Part shown: positions 1 through 16,309 of the stretch, piece by piece | How the letters are laid out: every line of letters begins with the position of its first letter | Numbering within the stretch: the stretch's first letter is position 1 | Assembly: GCA_043732305.1 (NCBI GenBank) | Contig: JAYTHU010000050.1 | Coordinates: 1 to 16,309, forward strand | DNA: 16,309 bases | Direction of reading: 5' to 3' | Origin: Oligoflexia bacterium | GTDB taxonomy: Bacteria > Bdellovibrionota > Bdellovibrionia > JABDDW01 | Position numbers and translations under genes: made by a program | The notes under the pieces: model-generated | Databases searched by the model: none | The model's input: only the letters and a program-made list of their open reading frames with translations | What the model was told of the DNA's origin: nothing

Positions 1-119
1 AAATGCGCGTTGGTCTGGAATACGATCGCGTCAGCACTCATTACGTGGACAACGCCAATGTCACAAATACTTTTGCCGTCGACAATCGCGTGCAAGTCAG
101 TGGCTGGTTTCGGTTCTAA
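1..119 (+). CDS. 3' end of a probable outer-membrane beta-barrel protein (partial, runs off the left edge; not in the ORF track)
   Basis: The frame from base 3 reads MRVGLEYDRVSTHYVDNANVTNTFAVDNRVQVSGWFRF-stop (TAA 117-119). The alternating hydrophobic/polar strands and terminal W-F-R-F fit the C-terminal beta-signal of Gram-negative OMPs. Confidence 0.7.
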   Translation, partial: MRVGLEYDRVSTHYVDNANVTNTFAVDNRVQVSGWFRF

Positions 120-200
120 CACACTATGCTATTTTGATTGATTTTTCCCCTGGGGCTCGTGTATAAGAGCCTAATTAAATTTAACCAGGAGAAATTTCGA

Positions 201-899
201 ATGAGACTTTTATCTGTATTGGCGAGTATGCTTCTTGTCAGCACCTTGGCCTTCGGTGCAAGCACCAAAATTAAAAAAGTTAAAAGAACAATTAACGACG
301 ATGGTTCCGTAACCACAACAACAACAGAGTCGTCATCTAGACTTTCAATTTACAAAGCTCGTGACACCGAACGTTTCGTTCGACGTATCATGCCCACAAT
401 TGGTTTGAACATTGCTGACACCACCATTAAAACAAGTGGAATGCGCACTGGTTTTGGCTTTGGTGGACTAATGGATCTCTGGGGTCAGCATGAGTGGGTG
501 TTGGAGACTGGCGTTCTCTATCGCCAACTAGGAACTAGCAACCAAGGAACGACCTTGGCTCTGAATTACATTAACGTTCCTATTTCTGCGAAATATTATT
601 TCATGGGACAAAATTCTAACACTATTTATTTCAAAGGCGGAATTACCCCCGGTTTTAATGTGGCCGCTACACAATCCACTGACACTACCAGCACAAACGT
701 GAGTAAAGATGTCAACACCTTCGACGTAGGAGTCATTGTTGGGATTGGCGGCCGTTATCTACTTTCTGATTCTGCGAGCATATTTTTGGAAGGTAATTAC
801 AACCGCGGTTTGGCCAATGTTATGAATACAACTGACGGCGAATCTTCCGTAAATACTTTGGCGTTTGGCGTGATGACCGGAGTCAGTATCGAATTGTAG
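201..899 (+). CDS. Small outer-membrane beta-barrel protein (PorT/OmpA-like barrel, OMP_b-brl type), about 232 aa, with signal peptide
   Basis: Start moved from 138 to ATG 201 because AGGAGA (187-192) precedes it and MRLLSVLASMLLVSTLAFG is a signal peptide. Typical barrel strands follow: LETGVLYRQLG, LNYINVPISAKYY, FDVGVIVGIGGRY, IFLEGNYNRGL, GVMTGVSIEL. Confidence 0.8.
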   Translation: MRLLSVLASMLLVSTLAFGASTKIKKVKRTINDDGSVTTTTTESSSRLSIYKARDTERFVRRIMPTIGLNIADTTIKTSGMRTGFGFGGLMDLWGQHEWVLETGVLYRQLGTSNQGTTLALNYINVPISAKYYFMGQNSNTIYFKGGITPGFNVAATQSTDTTSTNVSKDVNTFDVGVIVGIGGRYLLSDSASIFLEGNYNRGLANVMNTTDGESSVNTLAFGVMTGVSIEL

Positions 900-938
900 C
901 GCTTAGCTGCGTCGCAGTAATTACAATATATTTTTGAT

Positions 939-968
939 AGGGCCCGCTGAAAAGTGGGCCTTCTTTTT
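939..968 (+). terminator. Rho-independent terminator
   Basis: AGGGCCCGCT-GAAA-AGTGGGCCTT stem-loop (two G-U pairs, GNRA loop) followed by CTTTTT, 40 nt after the OMP stop. Confidence 0.85.
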
Positions 969-1096
969 GAACTAAATTCTCACGGGCCATAAAAAAAATT
1001 CATGAAACGGGTATTTTCATTTTTCATCGCTCGTATCTATTGCTTTGATATTTTGTAAATCACAATGTGCTCGAAACCCTTGTCCCGTTTTGCAAA

Positions 1097-1113
1097 TCAG
1101 AGAGGCTCTCTGA
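1097..1113. promoter_or_regulatory. Perfect 8-bp inverted repeat; candidate enhancer-binding-protein site
   Basis: TCAGAGAG-G-CTCTCTGA, about 105-120 bp upstream of the sigma-54 element. The function is inferred from position only. Confidence 0.35.
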
Positions 1114-1218
1114 GGGGCAATCGCAGAGTGAGTCTTTAATATTAAACCTATAGATTTTTTTCCGGATCTTAAAATTACTGAGAACTTTTTTACATAGTAG
1201 GGCACCTTCAGGTCATCA

Positions 1219-1234
1219 GGGCACGCCCATTGCA
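1219..1234 (+). promoter_or_regulatory. Sigma-54 (RpoN) -24/-12 promoter
   Basis: GGGCACGCCCATTGCA versus consensus TGGCACG-N4-TTGCW. GG (1220-1221) and GC (1232-1233) are exactly 10 nt apart, and the element ends 35 nt before the ATG at 1270. Confidence 0.8.
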
Positions 1235-1269
1235 ATTAGGTATTTCAAACTAATACACGGGGTGGGAAA

Positions 1270-3813
1270 ATGCGTACAAATTTATTTGTAGTATTGCTAG
1301 TGGGATCTATTTGTTTAGGGGCGATTCAACCGGCAAATTCGGGAGAACTAACTCCGCACGATTTTAAAAAAATGTGCGGAGAATATCTCATGGATCTCGG
1401 AAGTGATTCGAAATCAAGTAAGAGTCAAAAACATGATTTGCGTACGGCTGCAATTGTCGAGGAACATCCGTTCAGTGTTCTCCTTGATCCAGAATTTGTG
1501 CGTGCGCATCCGCTCATGCTCATGAGTTCTGATCAAATGGCACTTGCCGCCATCAATATTGCTGGGGTTGAGGAAGTTCTTGATCCAATCACTGGTGCAA
1601 ATAAAGTGAAGCGATATAAGCTTTTCTCCGATGGTGGGGATCTCACCAGTGGTAGTCGAGTCGTTGGAGCTTTGGATACCATTCAAAGTTTAGTGAACGG
1701 ACTTGCCGCCGGGGCTTCTGGTCATGATTCCGGAAAGTCTTTGAAGATTGTCGTGGCAGGACCCGGAACTGGAAAATCAGTTCTTCTCACGACTATAAAC
1801 AATGCGCTTAAAAAATTGTCACTCACCGAACCTAAGATGTTTCAGTACACATTCGAAATGACCAACTTAGACAAAATCCCAGAGGTAAAAAATCTTTTTG
1901 ATCAAATTCGCGTGGAAGGATCTTCTACGCCAATGCGCTCTCAGATCAATGATTTTCCTTTCGCACTTTTGCCGGAATCTTTGCAGAAAGCATATGTCGA
2001 AAAGTTTACCCCCGAGGTGATTGCGCTTTGTGGATATCCTCCCATTGCAAAGTTTGAATCAGAAGGCCAAGCACGTCGTATTCGCGACATGATCATGATC
2101 CATTATTCTCGAACTGAAAATGCCGGAAAACCTCTTAGCATTGAGCAAGAACTCTACTATTTAAGTAAACACGTTGTGCTGAAACGTAATATTCCTGGCG
2201 ATGATGGCGGAAGTTTAATTCTGCCAGCGCAAGGAAAACAAATTGATACAACGGGATTATTCTTCAAGCAAAATCCACTAGCGATTGGACTTGAAGGTGC
2301 AAACGCTGTTTTTTCTTATGCAGCTACCGGGATTTTTCCAAGATCCAATAACCAAGTTTTCATCATGGATGAAGCTGGAAAATATCCCCCTGACTTGCAT
2401 GCTAAAATGCTCACGTTTACTCAAGACAAGACAATTCAAGAAGGTGGGTCTCCTACTCTATTTATCAATTCAACTTTGATTGCGGCAACCAACACCAAGG
2501 ACATTCAGCGATTGAAAGCGGAAGACCCTGACTCCGCTCTTTTGTCCCGCTCTTGGATGATCAATATGCCTTGGCACTTGGATCCAGTTCTGGAAGCAGA
2601 AACAATTGCTTACGGAATGAAAGATCTCATGATGCAAAAACTTGGAGATCCTAATGCTCCTATTTTGAAGGCTTCAGAACATTTGCAAGAACTTTTCCCT
2701 CATCACGTTTTTGGACATGAAGCGGTGACATCTGATGGAAGATATCGCCTTTGGGTTGGAAGTGGTGAGAGCCGTGTAGAAATCAGTCCAAAAGCTTTGT
2801 TGTTTGCGGGGGCTGTTCCTGCTCTGACTCGTCAGTTTTTCATCACTCAAGAGGAGCTAGAAGCTGAAAATAATCAAGTAGCAAAAAATTATCCATTCCT
2901 GACTAAGCCTTTGTTGAATGACCGAGTTGCTAGACTCCGCGCTTGGATCGGTCTCACGCCTGTCGATCAGCAAATTGCAATTTCTTACAAGCGTCTAAGT
3001 GCAAAGCACAAAGAAGGGTCCTTTGGTTTTGGCAACAGAGACTCCAGTCGCTGGTTTGAAGCGGCCATTGCGCGAGCAAGAATGCCCGGCGGTGGAAAAA
3101 GTGTGACCGTAGGCCTGCTTGATAAAACTCTCGGTGAAATCACAATCGATCATCCATTAACAGATATTGTTAAAGACGATGACGGAAAAGATCGGTATTC
3201 GAAAACTTTCTTGGTTGGAATGATTAAGCTTTCAGATTTGTTAAAAACTCAGGTCTTCATTCCGCAAATGAAGAAAGATGTGATGAGTGCAATTGTTCTC
3301 GATCAAGATGAATCCATCAAAGATATCTATCGGGACGTGATTCAAGCACTGGCTGCAAAAGGTGCAAACCCAAGTGCTCAAGAGTTTTCAGACGTTATTT
3401 CTGGAACAACTAAGCCTATCATTGAAGGACAGTTGACTGAGATTCGCGTGATCTATGCAGAACAAAATGGGGGACGCGGGCTTTCTGCTGAGGAAATAAA
3501 TAACTGGCATGTTATTTTTGGATTGAGCGAAAGAAACAACGGTTTTGCTATAGATCCCAAACATGCACTGAACCAGTCATTGCTTTCTGCCGTTGCTCAA
3601 TATCATGCAAATCAAATGGCTGCGGCGTGGGCTACAACTGTTGATCGGTTGCTCCGAGTGGCGACAGGAAAACAGACGGGCACCCCTGATGAAATTCAAA
3701 TGGCTACCGATATGATTCGCAAACTGAAACTCAATCTTGGTTATAGCGAGCAAAGCATAAAGGAAGTTCTCCAAGTCATGCTCGTGGACGCTAACACCAA
3801 ACGCGGAAAGTGA
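1270..3813 (+). CDS. prkA: Divergent PrkA/YeaG-family AAA+ ATPase (annotated as a serine protein kinase family), 847 aa, with N-terminal signal peptide
   Basis: Walker A AGPGTGKS (1756-1779), Walker B VFIMDE (2356-2373) and ALLSR arginine finger (R at 2548). PrkA-like blocks occur in family order: KRYKLF, FSY..G.F.RSN, LHAKMLTFTQD, LIAATN, INMPWHL...E, ISPKAL....ALTR, EGSFGFGNR, GYSEQSIKEVL. A SpoVR/YeaH gene lies in the same operon. Confidence 0.85.
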   Translation: MRTNLFVVLLVGSICLGAIQPANSGELTPHDFKKMCGEYLMDLGSDSKSSKSQKHDLRTAAIVEEHPFSVLLDPEFVRAHPLMLMSSDQMALAAINIAGVEEVLDPITGANKVKRYKLFSDGGDLTSGSRVVGALDTIQSLVNGLAAGASGHDSGKSLKIVVAGPGTGKSVLLTTINNALKKLSLTEPKMFQYTFEMTNLDKIPEVKNLFDQIRVEGSSTPMRSQINDFPFALLPESLQKAYVEKFTPEVIALCGYPPIAKFESEGQARRIRDMIMIHYSRTENAGKPLSIEQELYYLSKHVVLKRNIPGDDGGSLILPAQGKQIDTTGLFFKQNPLAIGLEGANAVFSYAATGIFPRSNNQVFIMDEAGKYPPDLHAKMLTFTQDKTIQEGGSPTLFINSTLIAATNTKDIQRLKAEDPDSALLSRSWMINMPWHLDPVLEAETIAYGMKDLMMQKLGDPNAPILKASEHLQELFPHHVFGHEAVTSDGRYRLWVGSGESRVEISPKALLFAGAVPALTRQFFITQEELEAENNQVAKNYPFLTKPLLNDRVARLRAWIGLTPVDQQIAISYKRLSAKHKEGSFGFGNRDSSRWFEAAIARARMPGGGKSVTVGLLDKTLGEITIDHPLTDIVKDDDGKDRYSKTFLVGMIKLSDLLKTQVFIPQMKKDVMSAIVLDQDESIKDIYRDVIQALAAKGANPSAQEFSDVISGTTKPIIEGQLTEIRVIYAEQNGGRGLSAEEINNWHVIFGLSERNNGFAIDPKHALNQSLLSAVAQYHANQMAAAWATTVDRLLRVATGKQTGTPDEIQMATDMIRKLKLNLGYSEQSIKEVLQVMLVDANTKRGK

Positions 3814-3830
3814 TCGGCAGGTAGTATAAA

Positions 3831-6800
3831 ATGCGATTGATTTTTTTAGTTTTTGCTCTTGTTTTTGTAATCACTGGCTCTGGACTGAATTCCGCTTGGG
3901 CAAATCGCGAAGAGACGAGTGGAAGTCCTTATCTGGTAGTCGTGGAAGATCAGCAAGGACAGTCAAGTCGCAAACCTGGAATTTATAAACGTGACAGCAC
4001 AGGCAAGTGGCTTCCTCTGATCATGGGAAAAGTCAGTTCCCTGAGTGCTGTTGGACAATATTACTTGCCTCTCGAAAATTTTAAAAAGAATCTCAGGTTC
4101 GATTCTCTGGCTATAGTTGACAGGCGAGTTCATATTTTTAATATCAACAGTGAAATGTCTGTTAGTAGTTCAATTCTAATCTTAGATGGCTCTAGTGGCC
4201 AAGGTCACATGCAGGTCCTTGACCCACTTACCTCTCAGAGTATTGAAGTTCCGCTTATCAATACCCCTCAAGAATTTGCATTCACAAGTGTTCCTCTGCA
4301 ATTTATTGTCAGCAAATTAGATAAAATTGGTGAAGTGCTTCTTTTGTCTATTCACAGCCCCCATTTACACGGAGATGGTGTGACCTTTCCGGTATTTTTA
4401 GGCGAGCATGAGACACCCTCGAGCGCTCCAAAGGTAGTAAATGCTTCTCATTTATTAGAAGGTAAATTTCGAGATGGAATCCAGTTGTCTCGACGCATTT
4501 TAGGAAGTGAGAAAAGCCGGACTCCCACTGGGTATTTGAGCCAGCAAGTCATCAACCAGTACGCTAGGGTGCTTCCTGGTGATGGACCAGAAATAGAGTC
4601 CTGGAGAAACAATGTCCATGCTAAGGGCGAAAATATCTTCAACTTACCTCCTTCTGAATATCGTGAATTGCCTCAAGTCAGCATATTCAACGGCGAAACT
4701 GTAACTCCTAAAATTCCCACACTCGTTCTTGCTAAGTATCCCGATGTTGAGATCAGATACATTTGGGACCCAAAGGGTCTTCTCTCTGGGGTTTACGTAG
4801 TTCCAAGCACCGGTGATACCAATTTTGGTTTTATCCTTAGTAACGTCGTTCAGCACAAATGCTTGTTTCTTGGAAATATTTCGCATGATTCTTTGGGCTT
4901 TTCTAAAAATGTCTATGCCGAAATCGGAATTTACTCGTTTACAGATGATGTAGGTGGAATTCATTTGATCCAGGCGCCTAGCAAATCTGAACCTGCGATC
5001 GTGAATTTGAAACCTCCTTCAGATCTTGAAGTGATCGAAAAAAGTTTTCATATTGATCGTGAAGATCAAAACATTATTGCTTCATGGGGATATAAAAACG
5101 GTTCCTCTAGCACATATCTTTACCATTACATTCTAAGTGTCCCAGAATCGTATATCAAGATCATTAGCATGACTGAGATATCTAGAAAATATTTCAACTA
5201 CGCCAATCTGCTTTTTCGCACGTCAAGGCACAACGGTAAGACCTATTTTGATACGGATACACCGGCCCTTGATACTAAAGCGACTTACGCCTTAGCTCAT
5301 GACTTGAGTTCATCTCATGTGGATTTAGAAGAAAGCGCTAAACATAATACCTTGATATTAAAGTCCTTGCGCGCCACAAAACAAACGGTCTTACTTGAAA
5401 GCTTAAAATATCTTGAATACCAAAATGTTAAATCTAGCATCACTATGAGTGGGATTTATGAAGCCAGTGACGAAAAACAGTTGGTTAGCACACAGGTTCT
5501 GGAACCAATTCATATTCCTCTCTACATTCCTGGAACTTTTGTTTTGCAAAAGAAAAGAATCGTTCTTCTGAAGCAAAATATTCCGACTTCCATAGACATG
5601 GCGATTGTTCTTTCTGACGCCTCTCGAATGAATGGACAGAGTAATTTTCAAGCGAATCTCCTTCTGGCGAGTAAAGGTAAAGTTTTTTTGGCAAAACTCG
5701 CGACCATCGATTATCCTCTGGCATCTTTAGAAGATATAGAGATCCACGTCCCCTTCTTTAATAACGCCACCTCCGACCAAATGCTCGCTTACGTAAAAAT
5801 TAAAGATCAGGGTGTATTCCCCATTCCCTTCACGGTCTCGAAAGATGAATCTTTAGAAGCTAGATTCACTCAGACTATTTTAAATAGAGATTCCTTCAAG
5901 TTGTTTTCTGGCCAATCAATAGCTTCCAAAGCAAATATTTTATCTCGATTGAGATATGATAAGAACGGTGCGATTTATTGGGTGCTTACTGGCGAAGTCT
6001 CCGATTCTGAACCAGGCTTTACGATCAGAAATTTAATTACAGGCGAAACTGTCAATCATCACAACATGAAAATTTCTTTGTTTCAAGCAGGCAAGCCTGT
6101 GGAATCAAACACTGGAGCTTCATCCTGGCGCTACTATGTTCCTGATTTAAAAGATCCGGTTGGTTCCAGTCAGAGATACAAAACTGATTTGTTTTCCAAT
6201 TTTAAAAATCTTCTTGAGGACATGGCTGATCCCCGAAAACCACCGCAACGTGTGGTTATGATTGTGCCCGAAGATATCAAGCAATATGCAGCAAGTTACC
6301 CGCTAGCGCTTTATTTAAAGCATCATGATCGAAGTGCGCAATGGAGCCGAGACAGTTCCGGCATGAAGCTTTTTGTTCCTCGTGATAACTATTTTTCGCA
6401 AGAGGATGTTCTGCAAAATTTCTCAGTGATGGAGCAGAATGAAATTGCCGGCAGGTCTCGTTCTTTTTTCTACGGTGTCCTTTCGCATTTTTCACAAAAA
6501 GCAAAGCCTGAGCCGAAGAATCCGGAAGATGAAAAAACATTTACTATTCTAGAGCCCAAACTCTCGGAAAATATGTTTGACGAGGCTTCTGCCGATGGAA
6601 AAGTAGTCACCGATAATTCTGATAAAGTAAACCCTCACTTTTTGTATCTGCTTGTGACGGAAGGTCATCATGTGCCTATAGAAAAATTTGTGGCGCAGAA
6701 ATGGGATCATCCCAAAATTTCATCTCTCATCATTGCTACAAAAGAAGAGTGGGACGCCTATATAACCAAAGAGTCTTTTGAAGATAAGCTTAACCTTAAA

Positions 6801-9245
6801 CAATATTTCCGTGTAGAGACTCTTCAAGCACCCACAATTCCAGTTCGTGAACAGTATGTGAAAGAATTATTGGCTCGAAAAGAGATTCAAGCTTTTGGGT
6901 ACCATATTGATGTTTCCGACATAACCAATAAAGTCATTGCAGATCAAGACCAAGCGCGTGAAGTTTTGGCGAGATACTTTGTAAAACGTGCAGACACTTT
7001 AGCTGAAGAAAATCAGGAACCGTCTTTTGAAGGTTTTGTAAAAGCTGTCGGAATTCTCACTAAAGAATTACAAAAGAACACTGCTTTGAGAGCGTCGCTT
7101 AAAATCGACCGCGCAGTGATTCAGCAGTTGTTGTCCAAAGGTTTCACCATGACCCTGAACCCAGATCTTCTGGGACCTGATGATTTTCATAAAAAATTAG
7201 CCGATCCTCAAGCCGCTTGGAAATGGCAACAAAAAGGTTACGCCGGTCCGATTAAATTTAAAGAACAGATGATCAATATCATGCGCGGACAATTAAATCC
7301 GAGTAGCACACAAAATGTGGCTAGTACTTTTATATTGAATGGTGAATCTGGGACTGGGAAAACGCAGGCCATTAGGAGCTTCTTTGTAGATTTCTTGGGT
7401 CTCAAAGAATACAACATCAAGGCTCGAGATTTCACCTTAGGAGACGGCCGGACGGCAAATGCGGAAGCAGGTATTTTCATTCTGCATTGTCCTAGTATCG
7501 CAGATCCAAATATTCAGAGAATTCCAACCACGAATAAAAGTTCAACCATCATTTTAGATGAAGCTTTGCGGCATATTGATTTGTTTTTCACATCCGTTCA
7601 CGGTCAGCGCGGTGTTTTAATTCTAGATGACATTCATGATGCCAACAATTCCGTAAAGGAAGCGCTGCTGAAACGCGTTCGTTCTATTTTAGATCAAAAG
7701 ACAATCGAAGCTGTTTCTGCCGAAGGTGGGGAGCTCGTGACTGTTCCCACTCGTAATATCACGATTGGACTCACCATGAACTTCAAGCCAGATAAAGACA
7801 TGATTAAAAAAGTAGCTAAAAACGAGGTCAGTCCCACTAGGGATGAGTTGATTTTAGCAACGCTTTCCACACCTCACGCGATCTTGGACGATTCCTTTTT
7901 AAAGCGAATCACAGCCATTGTTCCCATGGACATTCATCCTAAAGATGCCAAGGGTCCGCAACTGACGCTTGAACTTGCAAATGTAGCTCGCCGTGGTTTT
8001 TTGAACAATCAAGTTCTGACTTTTGTGAGTCAGGATGTGATCACTACTTTAGTCGACAAATTTCCAACTACTGATGTGCGTACCTTTATGGATCCCGCAG
8101 AGAAAAATCTTTTGCAAACCAGCAGAAGCACGGGAAATCTATTTGTTACAGTTTCGAAAATCTCCCCTCACCAAACGTCTTCGAGTGGGGATGGACCAAG
8201 AGAAAAAATTGCCCATTACATTAAAGACAATACAGAAAAAGTTTCTATAGAAAATACCTTACGCGGAAAAATAGAGTTCATGCGTTACATGATTGATGGT
8301 TCAAGAAAAGTAATTTTTGAATCGATTTTAAAAAGCTTAAACGAAAACCCTGCCTACGCTGCTGGACCAGTGAACCAAAAAAATCTTGGAGCACCTGCAG
8401 CTAAAGCCATTCATGACCATTTATTGACGATTCCTTCTTTGCCGATTGAAGAGATGAATCTCAACCCTTCGCTGCTTCAGGTCAATAGTTTCCATGAGAA
8501 GAATCAATTTCGCTCGATTTTAAAATCAATCATTGAATCCCAGCGAGCGACAATGGGTTTTTCGATTCCACACATGGGTGCTTTTATTTCAGATGGATTA
8601 TTGGGAGATTCGAATTGGGATTCTGAGGATGATGGAATGTCACAGCGCACGCGTTTGAAGGTCGCTCAAGAGACCATGGAAAAAATCAAACCTGTTACTG
8701 TAAAAGTGATGGCGGAGATGTTGCGAGTTAAGTCTTTGGAAAAATATCCAGAACCAGAGAAATGGATAGAAAGTCTCAATAAATCGGATCCTGCATTTTT
8801 GATGAGAGACGCTGGAACCGCAATGACCGAGGCCCTTTCGGAATATATTATTGAGATGTATGGGGCGATGGTTAAAGAAAACCATGCAGAAAGTTTAAAT
8901 CCCGGCATTCCAAAAATGTCTACTTACGATAGTGTTCGGATATTTGCCTTAGCTGTCGACAAGGTTCTCGCGCAAATGCCTTGGGAAAACATGACGAGCT
9001 TCATGATTAAAAATCTCAACTTTGCTGTCGATAATTTGGACATGGGTCACGCCTCTGCACTTCAGTATCTTTTGTTTGAAAGTAAATTTTCTCTTCTCAA
9101 TGGAAAACATTTGAGCTTGGTTACAGGTCATGCGCAAGTCATGCCTTTCATTGAACAGCAAGAATCAGTGGAGAGAACATTGCACAAAAGATTTACAACT
9201 CACTGTGATGTCATTCTCTCAGGTCTTTCCCGAGGTAGCTTATGA
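3831..9245 (+). CDS. Giant (1804 aa) signal-peptide protein with an unknown N-terminal region and a ClpA/ClpB-like AAA+ C-terminal half
   Basis: Signal peptide MRLIFLVFALVFVITGSGLNSAWA. FILNGESGTGKT P-loop (GESGTGKT at 7341-7364). GVLILDDIHDANNSVKEALL, TVPTRNITIGLTMN and DSFLKRITAIVPM resemble the Clp NBD2 motifs [34 protein letters not shown] and PEFLNRIDEVVVF. Starts 17 nt after the prkA stop. Confidence 0.75.
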   Translation: MRLIFLVFALVFVITGSGLNSAWANREETSGSPYLVVVEDQQGQSSRKPGIYKRDSTGKWLPLIMGKVSSLSAVGQYYLPLENFKKNLRFDSLAIVDRRVHIFNINSEMSVSSSILILDGSSGQGHMQVLDPLTSQSIEVPLINTPQEFAFTSVPLQFIVSKLDKIGEVLLLSIHSPHLHGDGVTFPVFLGEHETPSSAPKVVNASHLLEGKFRDGIQLSRRILGSEKSRTPTGYLSQQVINQYARVLPGDGPEIESWRNNVHAKGENIFNLPPSEYRELPQVSIFNGETVTPKIPTLVLAKYPDVEIRYIWDPKGLLSGVYVVPSTGDTNFGFILSNVVQHKCLFLGNISHDSLGFSKNVYAEIGIYSFTDDVGGIHLIQAPSKSEPAIVNLKPPSDLEVIEKSFHIDREDQNIIASWGYKNGSSSTYLYHYILSVPESYIKIISMTEISRKYFNYANLLFRTSRHNGKTYFDTDTPALDTKATYALAHDLSSSHVDLEESAKHNTLILKSLRATKQTVLLESLKYLEYQNVKSSITMSGIYEASDEKQLVSTQVLEPIHIPLYIPGTFVLQKKRIVLLKQNIPTSIDMAIVLSDASRMNGQSNFQANLLLASKGKVFLAKLATIDYPLASLEDIEIHVPFFNNATSDQMLAYVKIKDQGVFPIPFTVSKDESLEARFTQTILNRDSFKLFSGQSIASKANILSRLRYDKNGAIYWVLTGEVSDSEPGFTIRNLITGETVNHHNMKISLFQAGKPVESNTGASSWRYYVPDLKDPVGSSQRYKTDLFSNFKNLLEDMADPRKPPQRVVMIVPEDIKQYAASYPLALYLKHHDRSAQWSRDSSGMKLFVPRDNYFSQEDVLQNFSVMEQNEIAGRSRSFFYGVLSHFSQKAKPEPKNPEDEKTFTILEPKLSENMFDEASADGKVVTDNSDKVNPHFLYLLVTEGHHVPIEKFVAQKWDHPKISSLIIATKEEWDAYITKESFEDKLNLKQYFRVETLQAPTIPVREQYVKELLARKEIQAFGYHIDVSDITNKVIADQDQAREVLARYFVKRADTLAEENQEPSFEGFVKAVGILTKELQKNTALRASLKIDRAVIQQLLSKGFTMTLNPDLLGPDDFHKKLADPQAAWKWQQKGYAGPIKFKEQMINIMRGQLNPSSTQNVASTFILNGESGTGKTQAIRSFFVDFLGLKEYNIKARDFTLGDGRTANAEAGIFILHCPSIADPNIQRIPTTNKSSTIILDEALRHIDLFFTSVHGQRGVLILDDIHDANNSVKEALLKRVRSILDQKTIEAVSAEGGELVTVPTRNITIGLTMNFKPDKDMIKKVAKNEVSPTRDELILATLSTPHAILDDSFLKRITAIVPMDIHPKDAKGPQLTLELANVARRGFLNNQVLTFVSQDVITTLVDKFPTTDVRTFMDPAEKNLLQTSRSTGNLFVTVSKISPHQTSSSGDGPREKIAHYIKDNTEKVSIENTLRGKIEFMRYMIDGSRKVIFESILKSLNENPAYAAGPVNQKNLGAPAAKAIHDHLLTIPSLPIEEMNLNPSLLQVNSFHEKNQFRSILKSIIESQRATMGFSIPHMGAFISDGLLGDSNWDSEDDGMSQRTRLKVAQETMEKIKPVTVKVMAEMLRVKSLEKYPEPEKWIESLNKSDPAFLMRDAGTAMTEALSEYIIEMYGAMVKENHAESLNPGIPKMSTYDSVRIFALAVDKVLAQMPWENMTSFMIKNLNFAVDNLDMGHASALQYLLFESKFSLLNGKHLSLVTGHAQVMPFIEQQESVERTLHKRFTTHCDVILSGLSRGSL

Positions 9246-12200
9246 AAAAATTATTGTTAATAATTATGCTTCTTTTAGGTTCAATTCTTCACGCTGAAGA
9301 AGATCAAGGCGCATATTTAGGAAACAAATGCGCGCGCGTCCTCGGGTGCCTTGGCAGTTGCGGGGGACATCCAAAGATTATTCAAATTGCAAGCGGCGAA
9401 GACACCGATACTTTTCAGCAGAGTGTTGCCGACGCAAAAATCATTTACGGTATTTCTAATAAGCTTAATTATTTCATACCCGACAATATCATTCGTCACG
9501 CTACCGGTATTGAGATGGCGGCTGTCGCAAGTGTAGGTGGGCATCCAGCACCGGTTTGGTCATCTGGAGCAAAACTTGTCGCAGGAGTTGGCGGCACCAT
9601 GGGAGTTTACGAAGTTGTTTTTCCCGGCCGAAGTTTTCATGATCAGTACATTCGCTCGGGGAATTCTGTTCATGACAATAGAACTGTATTTCCTCATGTT
9701 GCTGGTCACTATCATTTTGCGGTCAAGCATCCAGTTTCTCGCATAAGAGATTTGGATCAGATCGGTGACACCGAAAAATTAGCGGAATACATGAGTGAGA
9801 TAAAACTTAAAGTGAATGAGAGTGAATATTCTGATTGGTATCACCGTTTAGAAACTCTCTCTTATTTGCAAGATCTATCTCGCGGTTCTTATTACCCTCC
9901 ATCACATTTTGAACCAAGTAAGACGACTGAATTTTCCACTGAGAGTTCGGAGGATAAGGTAAATCCTTTGTCTCCTACTAGTTCAGTTATGCAGGCGTTG
10001 GTGGCAAATTTACCCGCTACTACCCCAGGCTGGAAAGTGAACATGGCGCAACTTTACGAGAAAACTGTAAAGATTATTGGCTCCTACACACAAACCAAAG
10101 TGATGAACGAAGGCTTTGCTGTTTTATCCCAATACTTACATCTGAAGCATGCGCCTGCCGATTGGCGAACGAGTGCTGATGCTGCTGAATTCGCGCAAAT
10201 CAATTCTGGGGTAGTATTCCCAAAGTTGAATAATCCCTACTGGCTTGGAGTTGAAGCTTGGAGAATTCACTACGCTCAATTTAAAAATAAAATGGCATCA
10301 CTAAATCTTTCAGATTTAGATTTGGACGCTCGTTTCGTGACTGAAATCGTAGATCCTATTTTAGAGTCAGGTTACAACGATTACACTTTTGTGCGTGCAA
10401 CCTTTAACGAAAAATGGGTAGAGAAACATAAATTATTTCTCTATAAATCAGAAATTCAAGGGCATGAAGAAGTTAAGATTGTGGTAACCCAAGACCCCCA
10501 ACGCATTGTGAATTCGTTTTCTCAGATGTTTAATAAAGACATTCACTTTGCTCGTATTGAACTTGTGAATCTCAATGAAAATAGAACTGGAACGGTGCTG
10601 CTGAGACACACGCCTGCGTATGGCATTCCCTTGAAATTAAGTTCCATGGCTCCAGCGCTTTATCAAGTGGCAAGATTCATGAAAGCTCCCATAAAATTAG
10701 AAACCATTTGGACAGCTATGTGGTTTCAAAGCAAAGGCAATTCCAAAGCGAGTCCTCAGGAGACGGGGCCGATGTCTGTTCAAGTGGATGCTTCTGGAAA
10801 AGTTCAGCTGAATTTATTTAGTGAAAAAATTCCCCCTGAAGTTCAAAAATCTCTGAGAGATTTTTTTCAGAGTTCTGTCGACGAATTTAAAAAAGACTTG
10901 ACCCTCTCTTATGGTAGTCAGCCTCTGCCTTTAGATGTGGCATCAATGAAAGCCGGCTCAGATCACGAAGCTCCCATCACTGGTGTGGACAGTTCGCTCC
11001 TTGGACATATGCCCACGACCACGCCCGCTATTTTAGAATTTATTAAGATGCGCGATCGAAGATTTCTGATTGCAGCTAAAGCCGCAATACGTGGCGAAAC
11101 CAAAAATGCTTTTAGCGCTAGCGGTGTTGTCGTAAAAGTTCTTCCAGACACTCCTATGCTCGAAAACGACACTCGCATTATTGGTGTCAGAAAAAGTTTT
11201 CGACAAAATAATCTTGGTCCGGCATCGATGATGACTCACTTTGGTGGAACCATGGCGCAGACGATCCCCGATGAAGATATGGATATTTCAGCAGGTGACA
11301 AATTGCCTGGCGATATCTTAGATCGCAAACCCGCTGGTGGTGGCGGCGGGAGTGGGCCGGGAGATGGTAATGGAGACGCGGATAAAGAGAGCGGCAAAGG
11401 TGCCAGCGGTGGTGAAGCCGATCCTCAGATGGAAGAAATTCCACAAGGTCTATATGGAAAAATGCTCGCCGAAGATATTGAAATTAGAAATCTGCGGCGC
11501 ACTTCGCAGAAGGACATCGACACTAAATCTTTTATTAAAGAAGGCGATGTTCGCAGGGCAAGCAATGATGTGAACTGGCCCAAAACTTCTGCTTCCGCTT
11601 ATGAAATGGGCTTGGTCATGCAGAAGCGTGAGAACATGAAACTTCCTGAAGGTCAGAAAAAGAAACGAACAAATCTTGAGCTGATCAGGTTCGGTTATAA
11701 ATTTCTGCCACAAAATCAATACACATCGCCTTCGCTCGATATTCAATTCGAGCCAAGTTATAGTGTCGTATTGATGGTGCTGGCCGATGTGTCTGGCAGT
11801 ATGAGCAAAGAGCATAAAGAAGCTATGAGGCGCGCAATATACAATGAAGTGGCTGCGCTCGAGGCGGCTCATAAAAAAGTCACAGTTCGATATTATCATT
11901 ACAGCCAAGGTGCTAAAGAAGTTTCTGTTAAAGAGTTTTATACTAAGTCAGAAGGGTCTTCAACGGACACCGCTGCCGGCATTACACTGGTAGCATCAGA
12001 TTTAGAAAAGGACCATCCGCGAGATAAAATCAATCGGGTTGTCAGTATTTTCTCTGATGGTGACGATAGTACTCCTGATGCATCTGCAGCATTGGGCGCA
12101 GCCCTTGCGGAGAAGGTTGATTTTCTGACGTATGCCAACATTGATCCAGAGGGCAAAAAAGTGGGCCCACTTTCTGAATCCTTTGAAGCCCTGAGCAAAC

Positions 12201-12292
12201 GTTCACCAGACAAAGTGGGATATGCTAACATCAGCGCCGATCCTGCGACTGTCTATCGCGCAATCAAGAATTGGTTTGGAAAACGTAACTAA
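9242..12292 (+). CDS. SpoVR(YcgB)-YeaH(YhbH/DUF444, vWA) fusion protein, 1016 aa, with signal peptide
   Basis: SpoVR motifs: YEVV, HVAGHYHF (9695-9718), QTKVMNEGFA (10091-10120), NPYWLG (10232-10249), YNDYTFV. YeaH motifs: RDRRFL, GDILDRKPAGGGGGSG, LAEDIEIRNL, DVSGSM MIDAS (11786-11803), AKEV..KEFY..SEG..T, SDGDD (12053-12067). ATGA overlap with the upstream stop and a GAGGT RBS (9232-9236). Confidence 0.85.
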   Translation: MKKLLLIIMLLLGSILHAEEDQGAYLGNKCARVLGCLGSCGGHPKIIQIASGEDTDTFQQSVADAKIIYGISNKLNYFIPDNIIRHATGIEMAAVASVGGHPAPVWSSGAKLVAGVGGTMGVYEVVFPGRSFHDQYIRSGNSVHDNRTVFPHVAGHYHFAVKHPVSRIRDLDQIGDTEKLAEYMSEIKLKVNESEYSDWYHRLETLSYLQDLSRGSYYPPSHFEPSKTTEFSTESSEDKVNPLSPTSSVMQALVANLPATTPGWKVNMAQLYEKTVKIIGSYTQTKVMNEGFAVLSQYLHLKHAPADWRTSADAAEFAQINSGVVFPKLNNPYWLGVEAWRIHYAQFKNKMASLNLSDLDLDARFVTEIVDPILESGYNDYTFVRATFNEKWVEKHKLFLYKSEIQGHEEVKIVVTQDPQRIVNSFSQMFNKDIHFARIELVNLNENRTGTVLLRHTPAYGIPLKLSSMAPALYQVARFMKAPIKLETIWTAMWFQSKGNSKASPQETGPMSVQVDASGKVQLNLFSEKIPPEVQKSLRDFFQSSVDEFKKDLTLSYGSQPLPLDVASMKAGSDHEAPITGVDSSLLGHMPTTTPAILEFIKMRDRRFLIAAKAAIRGETKNAFSASGVVVKVLPDTPMLENDTRIIGVRKSFRQNNLGPASMMTHFGGTMAQTIPDEDMDISAGDKLPGDILDRKPAGGGGGSGPGDGNGDADKESGKGASGGEADPQMEEIPQGLYGKMLAEDIEIRNLRRTSQKDIDTKSFIKEGDVRRASNDVNWPKTSASAYEMGLVMQKRENMKLPEGQKKKRTNLELIRFGYKFLPQNQYTSPSLDIQFEPSYSVVLMVLADVSGSMSKEHKEAMRRAIYNEVAALEAAHKKVTVRYYHYSQGAKEVSVKEFYTKSEGSSTDTAAGITLVASDLEKDHPRDKINRVVSIFSDGDDSTPDASAALGAALAEKVDFLTYANIDPEGKKVGPLSESFEALSKRSPDKVGYANISADPATVYRAIKNWFGKRN

Positions 12293-12324
12293 TCGAGCGA
12301 AGCTTAGTCTAAATAAATATTGTT

Positions 12325-12364
12325 AAGAAAAAGAAAGCCCCGCTTTTCAGCAGGGCTTTTTTTT
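12325..12364. terminator. Bidirectional rho-independent terminator between convergent genes
   Basis: A-rich tract, AAAGCCCCGCT-TTTC-AGCAGGGCTTT hairpin, then a T8 run. Lies between the stop at 12292 (+) and the stop at 12390 (-). Confidence 0.9.
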
Positions 12365-12389
12365 ACCAGTTTATTTTGTCTAGCGGTGC

Positions 12390-12971
12390 TTAGTGTTTTG
12401 CGCCGAGGTAATTCTTCACGCCTTCGGGAGTGGCTTTCATTGTTGAGCTGCCTTTTTTCCAGTTTGCGGGACAGACTTCGCCAGTTTTAGCAGAAGTTTG
12501 AAAAGCTTCAACCACGCGTAGAATTTCTTCCACGTTGCGGCCTACGCCTAAGTTATGAACAGTGATGTAATCGATTTTTCCTTCGGGATTGATCAAGAAA
12601 AGTCCGCGAAGGGCGATTCCAGCAGGGAGCAAAACTCCGTAGTCGCGCGCTACATCTTTGGTTAAATCGGCAAGTAAGGGGTATCGTAATTTTCCAATGC
12701 CACCATCTTTGGGTGCGGTGTTCATCCATGCGCGGTGAGTGTGTTCGCTATCGACTGAACAGCCAACAACTTCAGCGCCGAGAGCTTTGAACTTATCCAA
12801 ATTTTCGTCGAATGCGAGAATTTCTGTCGGACACACGAAAGTGAAATCCAAGGGATAGAAAAATAGAACCAGCCATTTGCCTTTGTAATCGTTGAGCGAA
12901 ATTTCTTTTACTTCGCCAGCGATAACGGCTTTGCCTTTAAAAAACGGTGCAGGTTGTTGTACTTGTGCCAT
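12390..12971 (-). CDS. ahpC: Typical 2-Cys peroxiredoxin (AhpC/Prx1 family)
   Basis: FFYPLDFTFVCPTE (peroxidatic Cys), GRNVEEILR and GEVCPANW (resolving Cys). AAGGAG RBS upstream. Confidence 0.95.
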   Translation of the reverse strand: MAQVQQPAPFFKGKAVIAGEVKEISLNDYKGKWLVLFFYPLDFTFVCPTEILAFDENLDKFKALGAEVVGCSVDSEHTHRAWMNTAPKDGGIGKLRYPLLADLTKDVARDYGVLLPAGIALRGLFLINPEGKIDYITVHNLGVGRNVEEILRVVEAFQTSAKTGEVCPANWKKGSSTMKATPEGVKNYLGAKH

Positions 12972-13009
12972 GAAATGGGGCTCCTTCTTAAAGTTAATTT
13001 GAGGTTAAT

Positions 13010-14422
13010 CTATGCCAGATCTGGCCTTGAGAGCAATCTGTCTTTTCTGTCGTTTAGACTGTTTGCCGATCGGTTGGCCAGCCGAATCCAATAAGCAAAA
13101 AGTGTGGATGCTACAATTGCCAATCCCAAGGCTAGGCCTGTCCATAGACCTTTGAGACCCCAATTTTCTTTGAAGCAAAGCCATGCTCCTATGGGAAGGC
13201 CAAAAATCCAGAAGGCAATGAGATTTGCAACAGCTGGAATTCTTGTTTCTCCGAGTCCTCGCATCGCTCCGGTGCAAATGACTTGAATGCCATCTGCCAC
13301 TTGAAATATCGCGGCTAAGATAATGATTTTAGAAGCCAATTTTATGACGTCAAGATCAGTGGTGAAAATTCCAATAATATGAGAGCCCCATGTTGAAAGT
13401 AAGATTCCTGAGCAAACCATAAAACAGAAAGACAAAATAAAGGCTGCATAGCCTGCTTGGAAACTTCGTTCAGAATCTTTTTCGCCCAAATAATAAGCCA
13501 CCCGAATTGCCGCGGCCATGGAAATTCCCAGTGGGATCATAAATGTGAAGCTCGCGATATTCAGAACGATAGAATGAGCTGCTAAGCTGACTGCCCCAAG
13601 TTTTGAGGCAAGGCCAGTGGAGAGCGAGAATACACCGACTTCGAAAAGCATCTGCAAAGCAGCTGGAGTTCCAAGCAAGAAAAGTTTTTTAAAGTAACTA
13701 TAGTCTATCCTCCAAGAGTGGTGACTGGGCGCTTTGTTTTTTCCTGAGAATGAAAAATAAATCAAGGCCACCGTCATGAGAACTCGATTGATCAAAGTGG
13801 ACAGCGCCGAACCCGGAATTCCCATTTCTGGAAAACCAAATTTTCCATTTATAAAAACCCAGTTCATCCCCAAATTAGAAATATTGGCGGTAACCATCAC
13901 CCATGTCACCCATTTGGAATATCCTGTGGCTTGGAGATATTGTCTGAGGGCGATGAACATCAAGAATGGAGTGAGCGACAAATTATAAATCTGAAGAAAT
14001 GATCTTGTTCCTACGGCAATAATGTTGGGGACGCCAAACATTGTTAGATGATCTGCGATGTAATAATTCAGTATCGTGAGTGGCACGCTTATGATGATTG
14101 CCATGTAGAAACCTTGGAGCTTCCAACGATGGGCTTCTTCAAGATTCCCGCTCCCCAAGTTAGATGCGATAAAAAAATCTAATCCAGAAAGTAGGCCTAA
14201 AGAAAATATTGAAAATATAAAAAATATCGAAGTGCCTAGGGTGACACTCCCTATGGCTACCGCACTAATTTTCCCCACCATGAATGAATCCACTAGTCCC
14301 ATGAGCATCTGCCCAGCTTGCGTAATAATAATTGGGACCGCTAGCACCATCATTGGTTTAATTTGTTCTTTTACCGTTTTCACTTTTTTGCTTTCAATAA
14401 AAATTTTAAAGGCACCAATCAC
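13010..14422 (-). CDS. MATE family multidrug efflux transporter (NorM-like)
   Basis: About 12 hydrophobic segments and the motifs LAVPIIITQ...MGLVDSFMVG, LGTPAALQMLFEVGVF, LAAHSI and FQVADGIQV...GAMRG. GTG start with a GAGGG RBS. Confidence 0.93.
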   Translation of the reverse strand: MIGAFKIFIESKKVKTVKEQIKPMMVLAVPIIITQAGQMLMGLVDSFMVGKISAVAIGSVTLGTSIFFIFSIFSLGLLSGLDFFIASNLGSGNLEEAHRWKLQGFYMAIIISVPLTILNYYIADHLTMFGVPNIIAVGTRSFLQIYNLSLTPFLMFIALRQYLQATGYSKWVTWVMVTANISNLGMNWVFINGKFGFPEMGIPGSALSTLINRVLMTVALIYFSFSGKNKAPSHHSWRIDYSYFKKLFLLGTPAALQMLFEVGVFSLSTGLASKLGAVSLAAHSIVLNIASFTFMIPLGISMAAAIRVAYYLGEKDSERSFQAGYAAFILSFCFMVCSGILLSTWGSHIIGIFTTDLDVIKLASKIIILAAIFQVADGIQVICTGAMRGLGETRIPAVANLIAFWIFGLPIGAWLCFKENWGLKGLWTGLALGLAIVASTLFAYWIRLANRSANSLNDRKDRLLSRPDLA

Positions 14423-14451
14423 TTTCCCTCACTCGTCGACACATCGGCTCG

Positions 14452-15105
14452 CTAGCCACTAGCAAATGCGGGATACTTTCTGTTTGTTCCTTTAAAGCGG
14501 CTATTTCTATTTTTATATGGAACAAGTCCCCAAGCCTCTAAAATATTTTTATCAATGTATTGGCAAAGCGATTTAAATTCATTTCCCCATTCTACAATTC
14601 GGGTGAATGGTCGCTTGTCCCAAAAATCTGCTCCAGCTGTTTTAATAACTACGGGCTTCTCAAAAATCTCCCCATTTGCCTGACCTGGATTGTTCCCGCT
14701 AGCATCTTCAATGTTTTTCTTATCGGTCGAGGCGGTTTTCCCGCGTTCGATTCCTAACATTTCTCTTGCGACCAGGCCAGAAATGGAACGAATAAATTTA
14801 TTGAATGCCACCCGCGAACTAGGAAGCACAATGAGATGGAAGTGGTTGCCTGTATTAGCAAATCTGTAAATTTTAACGCCACTTTGTTTTGCCTGCTTAA
14901 AGAACAGTTCTTTGAGTTTCTTTTCTTTTTTCAGAAATGAAATTTGCCCTTTTGCTTTTAAGGATCTCATCACTAAGTGCATAGCTCTTTTGGTTGCAAT
15001 CGGACGCTTGACCTTTGCATGGCTATTCTTCAGATAGGCCCCTCCAAAAACTTTGGGCGCTTTATTGTTAAATTCTTCGATTTTAAACTGCTTTTGTCGA
15101 GGCAT
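14452..15105 (-). CDS. Y1/HUH tyrosine transposase-like protein (IS200/RAYT superfamily)
   Basis: NHFHLIV HUH motif (HFH at 14836-14844), an upstream H-L-V-M-R strand, FWDKRPFTRIV and the catalytic-Tyr helix YIDKN (Tyr 14557-14559). GGAG RBS at 15112-15115. No IS ends identified. Confidence 0.8.
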   Translation of the reverse strand: MPRQKQFKIEEFNNKAPKVFGGAYLKNSHAKVKRPIATKRAMHLVMRSLKAKGQISFLKKEKKLKELFFKQAKQSGVKIYRFANTGNHFHLIVLPSSRVAFNKFIRSISGLVAREMLGIERGKTASTDKKNIEDASGNNPGQANGEIFEKPVVIKTAGADFWDKRPFTRIVEWGNEFKSLCQYIDKNILEAWGLVPYKNRNSRFKGTNRKYPAFASG

Positions 15106-15490
15106 TTAGCACTCCAGGTGGACTAATCATGACGTCGTTGGCATTACATAAAATGAATTTACCATCTTTGGTAGCGATGTCAATTTGATACATTTATTGC
15201 TAATTTTATTAGCGCGATGAATTGTCTTTTTTTGCGCGAGGATGGAAGGTTATTGAACGGAAATTTATATGTGAATTGAGCTCGACGGATCTGGGCTTGG
15301 TGTTTGCTTACCGCAAAGCAAAGGGGTGCTAAAAAATTAACTTTGGAAGTAAGGCAATGTGCAGAATAAAATTGATACTCGGTTTTGGCACAAGAGGCGA
15401 TTTAATCCGTATAGAATCGATCCCGTTGGAACCAAACTCGTGCCGGATCTCATCCACGCAAAAAATCTTTATCTTAGCGATGAGGACCTT

Positions 15491-16024
15491 TTAAACTTTT
15501 AGGATTCTGCCTAAGGTGCACATGATTACGCCCAAGCTAAGGGTAAAGCTCATAAAGATTGCGAGTCTCATCCACTGGCCAACGGATTGTAGAAACTGAT
15601 AGTCGAGGAAATCTGGACCGAACATATTGGAGCCTAGCCAGCAAAGAAAACCTAAAACAAAAGTGTAGAAAAGCATTCGGCCAAAGGCGTTGGCTTTTGT
15701 CATTTTGCCAACCATGAACCCACACAGAGAGGCGCAGGCGAAATGCACAATGGCTCCAACTAAGAACACGGAGGTTGGAGCAGAGAGAAGGAAAGCTTTT
15801 CCTCCAAAAACGGCAGAAGCCGTAAGCTGCAACCACCACAGTTTTCCAGCGGTTTCAACTTGGAATAAACTCGAAACAAAAATCATAACCACGCCGGCTA
15901 ATAGTCCGGAGAAAATCCCTACGCCCACTCGCTTGAGACTAGGATGCAAGAAAGAATCAAGAAGCACAGTTCCTTGACCATTGTCATCATTAGCTGCCAT
16001 TGCGTTAGTTGCGTCAGTAGACAT
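15491..16024 (-). CDS. Small integral membrane protein, about 177 aa, 4-5 TM segments, function unknown
   Basis: Start moved from 16141 to ATG 16024 because AGGAG (16036-16032) precedes it and the longer ORF would overlap the divergent gene. Hydrophobic helices include GIFSGLLAGVVM, VGAIVHFACASLCG and FVLGFLCW. Confidence 0.75.
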   Translation of the reverse strand: MSTDATNAMAANDDNGQGTVLLDSFLHPSLKRVGVGIFSGLLAGVVMIFVSSLFQVETAGKLWWLQLTASAVFGGKAFLLSAPTSVFLVGAIVHFACASLCGFMVGKMTKANAFGRMLFYTFVLGFLCWLGSNMFGPDFLDYQFLQSVGQWMRLAIFMSFTLSLGVIMCTLGRILKV

Positions 16025-16089
16025 TTTTTCACTCCTGTTTTGTCGAAATTTAAATAGATAGTAAAGGTTCCGTCCATTAAGATCAAGGT

Positions 16090-16309
16090 ATGAATTCAGC
16101 AAAAATAACGCAAAGTGAGCAAGCCAAAATAGGTGCGGCAATAAACACCAAATTCACCGATCTCATGGGCTGTGAATATCCTATCATTGCAGGCCCAATG
16201 TTTTTGGTAAGCAATGTTCAGTTGGTTACCGAGGTTTCTAATGCGGGAGGGGTCGGTGGCGTTCCTACTTTAAATTGGAGAACCACTGTCGCTTTCGATG
16301 CTGCTATGG
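16090..16309 (+). CDS. 5' end of a nitronate monooxygenase / FabK-like FMN oxidoreductase (partial, runs off the right edge; not in the ORF track)
   Basis: Reads MNSAKITQSEQAKIGAAINTKFTDLMGCEYPIIAGPMFLVSNVQLVTEVSNAGGVGGVPTLNWRT. The T.F...G..YPII..PM and VSNAGG.G motifs mark the family. The exact start codon is uncertain. Confidence 0.85.
   Translation, partial: MNSAKITQSEQAKIGAAINTKFTDLMGCEYPIIAGPMFLVSNVQLVTEVSNAGGVGGVPTLNWRTTVAFDAAM

Follow-up and report, generated by a model that had tools for sequence, protein, structure and literature searches.

Because ATP is considered absent from the periplasm of bacteria, an operon that encodes two AAA+ proteins with predicted export signals calls for an explanation of where its products act. 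Such an operon occurs on contig JAYTHU010000050.1 of the Oligoflexia bacterium assembly GCA_043732305.1 (positions 1 to 16,309; the window, below, means this whole stretch of 16,309 nucleotides), and comprises prkA, a gene at 3831-9245 on the forward strand for an 1804-residue Clp/Hsp100-derived protein, here termed P0001, and a gene for a SpoVR-YeaH fusion protein. The answer we favor, with a probability of about 0.45, is that P0001 forms a nucleotide-gated ring that serves an exported PrkA-YeaH-SpoVR system as scaffold and target finder, and that a short cysteine motif, or tag, present in all three proteins routes them into the cytoplasm of a prey or host cell. The operon is an unusual and new variant built from known parts, in which the cysteine motif common to the three proteins is newly recognized; the fold models, the triple-repeat N terminus, and the tag of the P0001 family are new to this analysis, and no published account of the family or its tag was present in the full-text literature searched, subscription journals and supplements being largely outside its scope.

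The P0001 gene is real rather than a chance reading frame. Its start lies 17 nucleotides beyond the prkA stop and its TGA overlaps the ATG of spoVR-yeaH as ATGA (9242-9245), which agrees with the initial annotation, made from the DNA letters without database searches, in placing it between prkA and the SpoVR-YeaH gene with coupling to the latter. Pfam assigns SpoVR, DUF444, and vWA matches to the fusion protein and one weak AAA match (E 0.024) to P0001. The family matches 228 clusters (50% identity) at E<=0.001, and the motif and tag counts given below were made on 114 proteins of at least 1700 residues, among 150 matches listed.

Linkage of the three genes was counted on 62 loci, some of which share one genome or sit on split contigs. 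Where there was enough DNA, prkA was directly upstream of the P0001 gene on the same strand at 49 of 52 loci (divergent at one and not adjacent at two), and spoVR-yeaH was directly downstream at 52 of the 54 testable loci, in line with the proposed co-occurrence with signal-peptide PrkA. In genome G514 prkA does not adjoin the P0001 gene but is present elsewhere. Homologues independent of PrkA and SpoVR, which would have spoken against a dedicated partnership, were not seen, save for two second copies with other downstream neighbors; these P0001-type copies are in the small genomes G096 and G121 (L047:175-10338 and L048:1-12921) and are followed by signal-peptide proteins of 264/296 and 1040-1095 residues, with no spoVR-yeaH. 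At another locus (L071:1-5590) two tandem spoVR-yeaH fusion genes lie 3' of a P0001-type gene. The module is dispensable and decays as a unit, since in genome G005 (L009:1-8102) all three genes are broken together, prkA being a 105-residue remnant and both the P0001 gene and spoVR-yeaH containing stops. The source genome (G000, 98% complete) also has signal-less prkA and yeaH-spoVR genes, located at contig ends, and the set in the window is thus a second, specialized copy.

The Clp-like protein and its partners

Export signals were called with a home-made hydropathy rule, not with SignalP. The P0001 N terminus reads MR-LIFLVFALVFVITG-SGLNSAWA, with predicted cleavage before the following N, and contains the sole hydrophobic 19-residue stretch in the protein; a comparable hydrophobic core is present in 98 of the 104 relatives with a complete N terminus, so that the signal peptide initially proposed is upheld by this heuristic. 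In all three operon proteins the N terminus opens with a basic residue, followed by a hydrophobic core and a site of the A-x-A/S type.

A double AAA+ fold like that of ClpA is predicted for residues 783-1475, in agreement with the Clp-type assignment of the initial annotation. The model of residues 783-1804 has a mean predicted local distance difference test score (pLDDT) of 91 and a predicted template modeling score of 0.83; its top Foldseek matches, ClpC1, ClpC, and ClpA, extend over both AAA+ modules (E ~1e-12), and an independent aligner ranked ClpA first (1ksf; Z 14.9, root-mean-square deviation 12.8, 496 aligned, model residues 1-693), followed by mitochondrial CLPB, the ClpB second module, HSP101 of PTEX, the export translocon of Plasmodium (6e10, Z 12.8), and torsin A (5j1s, Z 12.4). 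A PDB sequence search with P0001 alone gave no matches and one with a profile gave weak Hsp104/ClpC1 matches, and in the ESM Atlas whole P0001 matched AAA clusters, below 0.9.

The first AAA+ module (D1) is degenerate, as had been supposed, in that a Walker A GK[TS] is found in 0/114 and a Walker B hhDE in 1/114 relatives; two D1 copies were detected in 51/114. The second (D2) has K1177, T/S1178, D1266, D1267, N1317, and R1359 in all 114 proteins and R1417 in 109, and it includes the elements that we take to be sensor 1, the arginine finger, and sensor 2 from a profile alignment and known Clp motifs. The D2 Walker B is Asp-Asp in all 114, with no glutamate, and is followed by histidine in 100. 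The aromatic pore loop is missing (G[YF][VI]G in 0/114, any [YFW]-hydrophobic-G in 1/114), the corresponding segment varying in length and sequence across the family, and a ClpP-binding IGF/L-like loop occurs in 1/114. Given the loss of the pore loop and of the catalytic Walker B glutamate, P0001 is likely, as judged from these motifs, a nucleotide-gated scaffold rather than a threading unfoldase, and the invariant arginine finger suggests an oligomer with nucleotide between subunits. A scaffold or target-recognition role, one of those first suggested, fits, whereas that of a dedicated unfoldase or translocase fits poorly. Since PrkA and SpoVR-YeaH have signal peptides and cysteine motifs of their own, there is less reason to suppose that P0001 serves to load or deliver them.

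Residues 25-782 are modeled as beta-rich modules (pLDDT 84) that are homologous to one another (hhalign E 1.3e-6, 3.6e-7, and 1.9e-4). This region had been described as about 750 residues of unknown sequence; that holds insofar as structure searches returned no close solved fold, the matches being partial and weak ones to propellers (Z <= 7.4, the best being VIA, Z 7.4), but it is now predicted to consist of three related modules. A PDB sequence search gave nothing useful for it or for SpoVR-YeaH, and none of 53 family members scanned against Pfam had a Clp_N match. The helical tail foreseen from the sequence is also apparent, as residues from about 1476 to 1804 are almost all helix in the 783-1804 model and lie outside the Clp structural matches; no family was found for the tail, modeled here as part of 783-1804, it gave no usable ESM Atlas match, and no relationship between it and exported PrkA or SpoVR-YeaH could be detected.

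P0001 thus resembles the class I Clp/Hsp100 proteins (ClpA, ClpC, ClpB/Hsp104, ClpV) in its predicted D1-D2 tandem without a middle domain, ClpA being the best match, and in the retained Walker A, sensor 1, arginine finger, and sensor 2 of D2. It differs from them in its signal peptide, in an N terminus of 750 residues in three beta modules in place of the helical Clp N-domain, in a dead and often duplicated D1, in the Asp-Asp Walker B and missing pore and IGF loops, and in a helical tail of 330 residues, with an identity of 12-15% only. Because it lacks five defining class I features, it should not be filed as ClpA, ClpB, ClpC, or ClpV; with respect to ClpV of type VI secretion, its genome also lacks the TssC/VipB cluster marker. 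PTEX HSP101 and the torsins, both among the top structural matches, are likewise Clp-derived ATPases that act outside the cytosol, and eukaryotic lumens hold ATP. HSP101, however, has two active modules and pore-loop tyrosines, according to the portion of PMC7355975 available, and the P0001 operon has no pore protein.

All three canonical families, PrkA/YeaG, YeaH/YhbH (DUF444), and SpoVR/YcgB, are represented in the operon with their key motifs intact; the differences from canonical loci are the signal peptides and cysteine tags, the SpoVR-YeaH fusion, and the inserted Clp-derived gene. In exported PrkA the Walker A lysine is present in 45/45 copies, the Walker B aspartate and glutamate in 39/45 and 43/45, and R427 and R590 in 45/45, and in SpoVR-YeaH H152, H156, E290, D849, S853, and D939 are each present in 46/46. 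The accessible text of 10.1101/072470 reports that the canonical prkA-yeaH-spoVR genes are cofit in six bacteria and describes the biochemical function of SpoVR as unknown, and that of PMC13001217 describes PrkA as an AAA+ protein that oligomerizes with ATP and, when pure, is without protease activity. In MoxR AAA+/vWA pairs the AAA+ ring pulls and the MIDAS of the vWA domain (its metal ion-dependent adhesion site) grips the target, as set out in the part of PMC9976466 consulted. The MIDAS residues of SpoVR-YeaH are intact, so that PrkA and YeaH may work in the manner of NorQ-NorD, CbbQ-CbbO, and RavA-ViaA, although those pairs are cytoplasmic and without a Clp-derived third partner. By this analogy, and with its AAA+ motifs intact, PrkA is likely the motor and P0001 the platform and target finder.

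A cysteine motif shared by the three proteins

A lone C-x-x-x-L motif is common to the three operon proteins, being C-terminal in P0001 and N-terminal in PrkA and SpoVR-YeaH. C1792, the sole conserved cysteine of P0001, sits at the end of the last helix. In PrkA and SpoVR-YeaH an aligned cysteine, often the only one of the mature protein, lies just past the signal peptide in 44/45 and 44/46 full-length copies, respectively, within linkers that are otherwise unconserved. In a tree of the 114 P0001 proteins an eight-member clade (support 1.0; members marked by eye) has lost the C-terminal cysteine and acquired instead an extension at the N terminus with a C-x3-[LFM] motif. The tag cysteine is either close to the C terminus or separated from the mature N terminus by several to ~40 residues, and thus not at the lipoprotein +1 position. 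No transmembrane helix follows it, and past residue 24 P0001 has no hydrophobic helix. The F-x3-C-x3-L helix is reminiscent of the Mia40 docking helix, and MYXO-CTERM, the lipobox, and the Mia40 helix are all short signals with a terminal cysteine; the operon tag differs from these in having neither a transmembrane helix nor a basic tail, in not being at +1, and in occurring at either end.

The tag extends well beyond the operon. A strict form of the motif, counted in proteins with at most two mature cysteines and genome-wide in the source genome alone, marks 47 of 468 signal-peptide proteins (28 N-terminally and 19 C-terminally), compared with 8 of 2867 internal windows and, among 1294 proteins without a signal, 19 N-terminally and 6 C-terminally (Fisher p 7e-18, 2e-6, and 3e-7, values inflated by paralogues). 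In 800 kb of G014, a genome with no operon, the motif shows no enrichment (2/142 signal-peptide proteins); in G004 and G002, where the operon was not found, it occurs in 0/21 and 1/18, samples too small to count. Among 57 tagged proteins picked by eye from 104 candidate rows, 14 have a Pfam match, including four ATP-using proteins (ATP-grasp, SelO, Clp AAA, and ABC1 kinase) and one DnaJ protein; the others are two C1B peptidases, PLD, M48, transglutaminase, trypsin, TPR, WG repeat, and a weak hydrolase match. All three Clp-like proteins of the source genome with signal peptides end in the tag, whereas a signal-less ClpB-like one does not.

Tagged genes are clustered in arrays in the source genome. 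One array (C31:24488-39783) comprises at least eight genes for signal-peptide proteins, the majority with a cysteine motif at the N or C terminus, and ends in a 983-residue Clp-like protein with a dead D1 and a C-terminal tag. At C188:319-9085 a tagged 516-residue P-loop protein and a 938-residue protein face four tandem paralogues of 338-366 residues, three of which end in a C-L-x-x-L-E helix. An 883-residue signal-peptide Clp-like ATPase (C62:32457-35108; L144:57-2708, reverse strand) retains its two Walker A/B pairs intact, carries a C-x3-L motif at the C terminus, and has relatives in 2 of 40 other genomes searched. On the same contig (C62:38430-38906; L144:6030-6506) is a 158-residue tagged exported protein with no Pfam match and with a sequence reminiscent of nucleoside deoxyribosyltransferase-like folds.

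Proposed destination and function of the trio

The predicted export signals and shared cysteine tag of all its members make delivery of the trio into a prey or host cell likely; the presence of the tag on ATP users and a DnaJ domain points to a cytoplasmic destination there, and the predicted Sec signals to a route fed from the periplasm. We propose that the three proteins are made together, consistent with the observed adjacency and ATGA overlap of their genes, and that Sec would take each of them across the inner membrane. The lone-cysteine amphipathic helix would then be recognized in the periplasm by a receptor or carrier, perhaps by way of a mixed disulfide, and transported onward in a second step. 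Once in the target cell, P0001 may assemble around ATP at D2 interfaces, as its Walker A, sensor 1, and arginine finger suggest, with turnover that, in view of the Asp-Asp pair, could be slow or occur only when triggered. Its three beta modules might pick the target, on which PrkA would exert force through the YeaH vWA/MIDAS grip and which the SpoVR His/Glu site would process or remodel, these roles being proposed by analogy with the MoxR/vWA pairs. Somewhat more tentatively, such a hitherto undescribed two-step route, in which Sec is followed by a step that recognizes a movable lone-cysteine helix, could in some Bdellovibrionota deliver about a tenth of exported proteins, including an entire multi-subunit AAA+ remodeling machine based on a Clp-derived pseudo-unfoldase, into prey or host cytoplasm.

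Several observations weigh against this proposal. In surveys using one marker per secretion system, the operon shows no correspondence with markers of type III, IV, or VI systems: TssC/VipB (type VI) was found in 0/41 genomes, the source included, with a positive E. coli control, no HrcV (type III) was above the cut-off, and VirB4 (type IV) was present in 2/7 operon-bearing genomes. The export calls behind it come from the hydropathy rule. The tag swap to the N terminus is one evolutionary event, not eight, and 4/114 relatives, in two lineages, have a cysteine at neither end; in the flanks of operon loci in other genomes the tag is present in 2/37 signal-peptide proteins, a small sample. As for the tagged set, 43/57 proteins have no Pfam match, several that do (WG repeat, trypsin, TPR, and M48) are ordinary exported types, and the enrichment of ATP users derives from a P-loop pattern with four matches. 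An Asp-Asp Walker B is compatible with real hydrolysis in some AAA+ proteins, e.g. DnaA, and that SpoVR may be a peptidase is a reading of its motifs.

Some of these points favor a rather unlikely alternative in which the trio stays in the predator envelope or the prey periplasm, the cysteine tethering it to an envelope partner by disulfide or acylation, and ATP either leaking from prey or having a structural role. Sec export would suffice for this, and the marker surveys found no injection machine; D2 looks slow and D1 dead, some members of the tagged set are ordinary exported types, and cysteine-containing sorting tails such as MYXO-CTERM are known. It accounts poorly for the fully kept hydrolysis motifs of PrkA, for the sharing of the tag by kinase, AMPylase, ATP-grasp, and DnaJ domains, the last of which need Hsp70, in bacteria a cytoplasmic protein, and for a tag with no following transmembrane helix and not at lipoprotein +1. 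More doubtful still is the possibility that the N termini do not function in export and that the module is a paralogue residing in the cytoplasm, which the heuristic nature of the calls would allow; such N termini with A-x-A-type sites recur in all three genes over at least 45 loci and the canonical copies in the same genome carry none, which makes it highly improbable.

Alternatively, the operon might itself be the machine that moves tagged proteins, in the style of PTEX, with a Clp-like ring as docking collar and PrkA as motor on the prey or host membrane. Plasmodium HSP101, a Clp-type ATPase, drives export over the vacuole membrane, as described in the accessible part of PMC7355975, and is among the structural matches of P0001; the tag is also rich in the operon-bearing source genome and scarce where the operon was not found, albeit in part on the small G002 and G004 samples. 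We regard this as unlikely, because the same paper has HSP101 threading via D2 pore-loop tyrosines that are absent from the P0001 family, the operon has no membrane component and its own products are tagged, it is decayed in G005, and in G003 (73% complete), where no operon was found, another tagged Clp protein has a relative. That P0001 is a working Clp-type unfoldase, with a nonaromatic pore loop, feeding SpoVR as a peptidase seems very unlikely. Its fold and conserved Walker A, sensor 1, arginine finger, and sensor 2 agree with this, the invariant Asp-Asp-x-His may be a rewired active site, and SpoVR keeps its His/His/Glu set; against it are the variable pore-loop segment with no conserved aromatic, the missing Walker B glutamate, and a D1 whose dead and sometimes duplicated state suits a spacer or scaffold.

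If the tag is a delivery signal, as the scaffold and delivery proposal requires, it provides a simple sequence rule for listing effectors of uncultured predatory bacteria and a handle for finding an unrecognized secretion step. The exported PrkA-YeaH-SpoVR system, in which the catalytic-looking residues are all kept and SpoVR and YeaH are fused, may also be useful as a soluble system with which to probe the biochemistry of a widespread module.

Distribution, neighborhood, and feature coordinates

P0001 relatives were found in 7/41 near genomes, 29/301 genomes of the class, and 35/401 of the phylum. Scanning all species genomes for a motif turned up 18 loci. True members account for 15 of these, nine labeled as Bdellovibrionota taxa and six bearing broad labels. 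A word-index homologue search returned P0001 itself alone, its relatives having come by profile search, and no relatives were present on viral contigs (searched with a single-protein query) or plasmids.

Table of features in and around the operon (window coordinates)
Feature	Position	Strand	Basis and details
Terminator-like hairpin ending upstream gene	939-962		sequence
prkA, signal-peptide-bearing	1270..3813	+	847 residues, intact AAA+ motifs, N-terminal tag C36 (1375-1389)
P0001 gene	3831..9245	+	open reading frame, 1804 residues, 0 internal stops; family of homologues
Predicted Sec signal peptide, residues 1-24	3831..3902	+	sequence, A-W-A/N cleavage-like site; hydrophobic core in relatives
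N-terminal region, three predicted homologous beta-sheet modules (~25-234, 279-484, 494-744)	3903..6176	+	model, hhalign
D1, predicted AAA+ fold lacking both the Walker A lysine and Walker B	6177..7145	+	model, motif census
D2, Clp-NBD2-like AAA+ module	7158..8255	+	intact Walker A (7341-7364); Asp-Asp-x-His as Walker B (7626)
C-terminal domain, predicted all-helical, ~330 residues	8256..9242	+	conserved R1492, W1645, D1710, W1718
C-terminal F-x3-C-x3-L motif, lone-cysteine tag, C1792	9192..9218	+	cysteine in last 40 residues, 102/114
SpoVR-YeaH (DUF444/vWA) fusion gene	9242..12292	+	1016 residues, signal-peptide-bearing; N-terminal tag C30 (9329-9343), conserved H-V-x-G-H and N-E-G, full MIDAS
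Terminator-like hairpin, 3' of third gene	12334..12359	.	sequence

Terminator-like and promoter sites overall occur at shuffle level in the window, with no excess, and Rfam gave 0 matches. A recently acquired horizontal island was considered and rejected, the GC content being 0.425 versus 0.427 for the genome. Upstream of the operon is an outer-membrane beta-barrel gene (138-899) with its own terminator-like hairpin, which is not a standout neighbor at the other loci listed. Peroxiredoxin and MATE transporter genes (12390-14422, reverse strand) converge on the operon terminator, and beyond them lies an IS200-like (Y1) transposase-family open reading frame (14452-15105, reverse strand).

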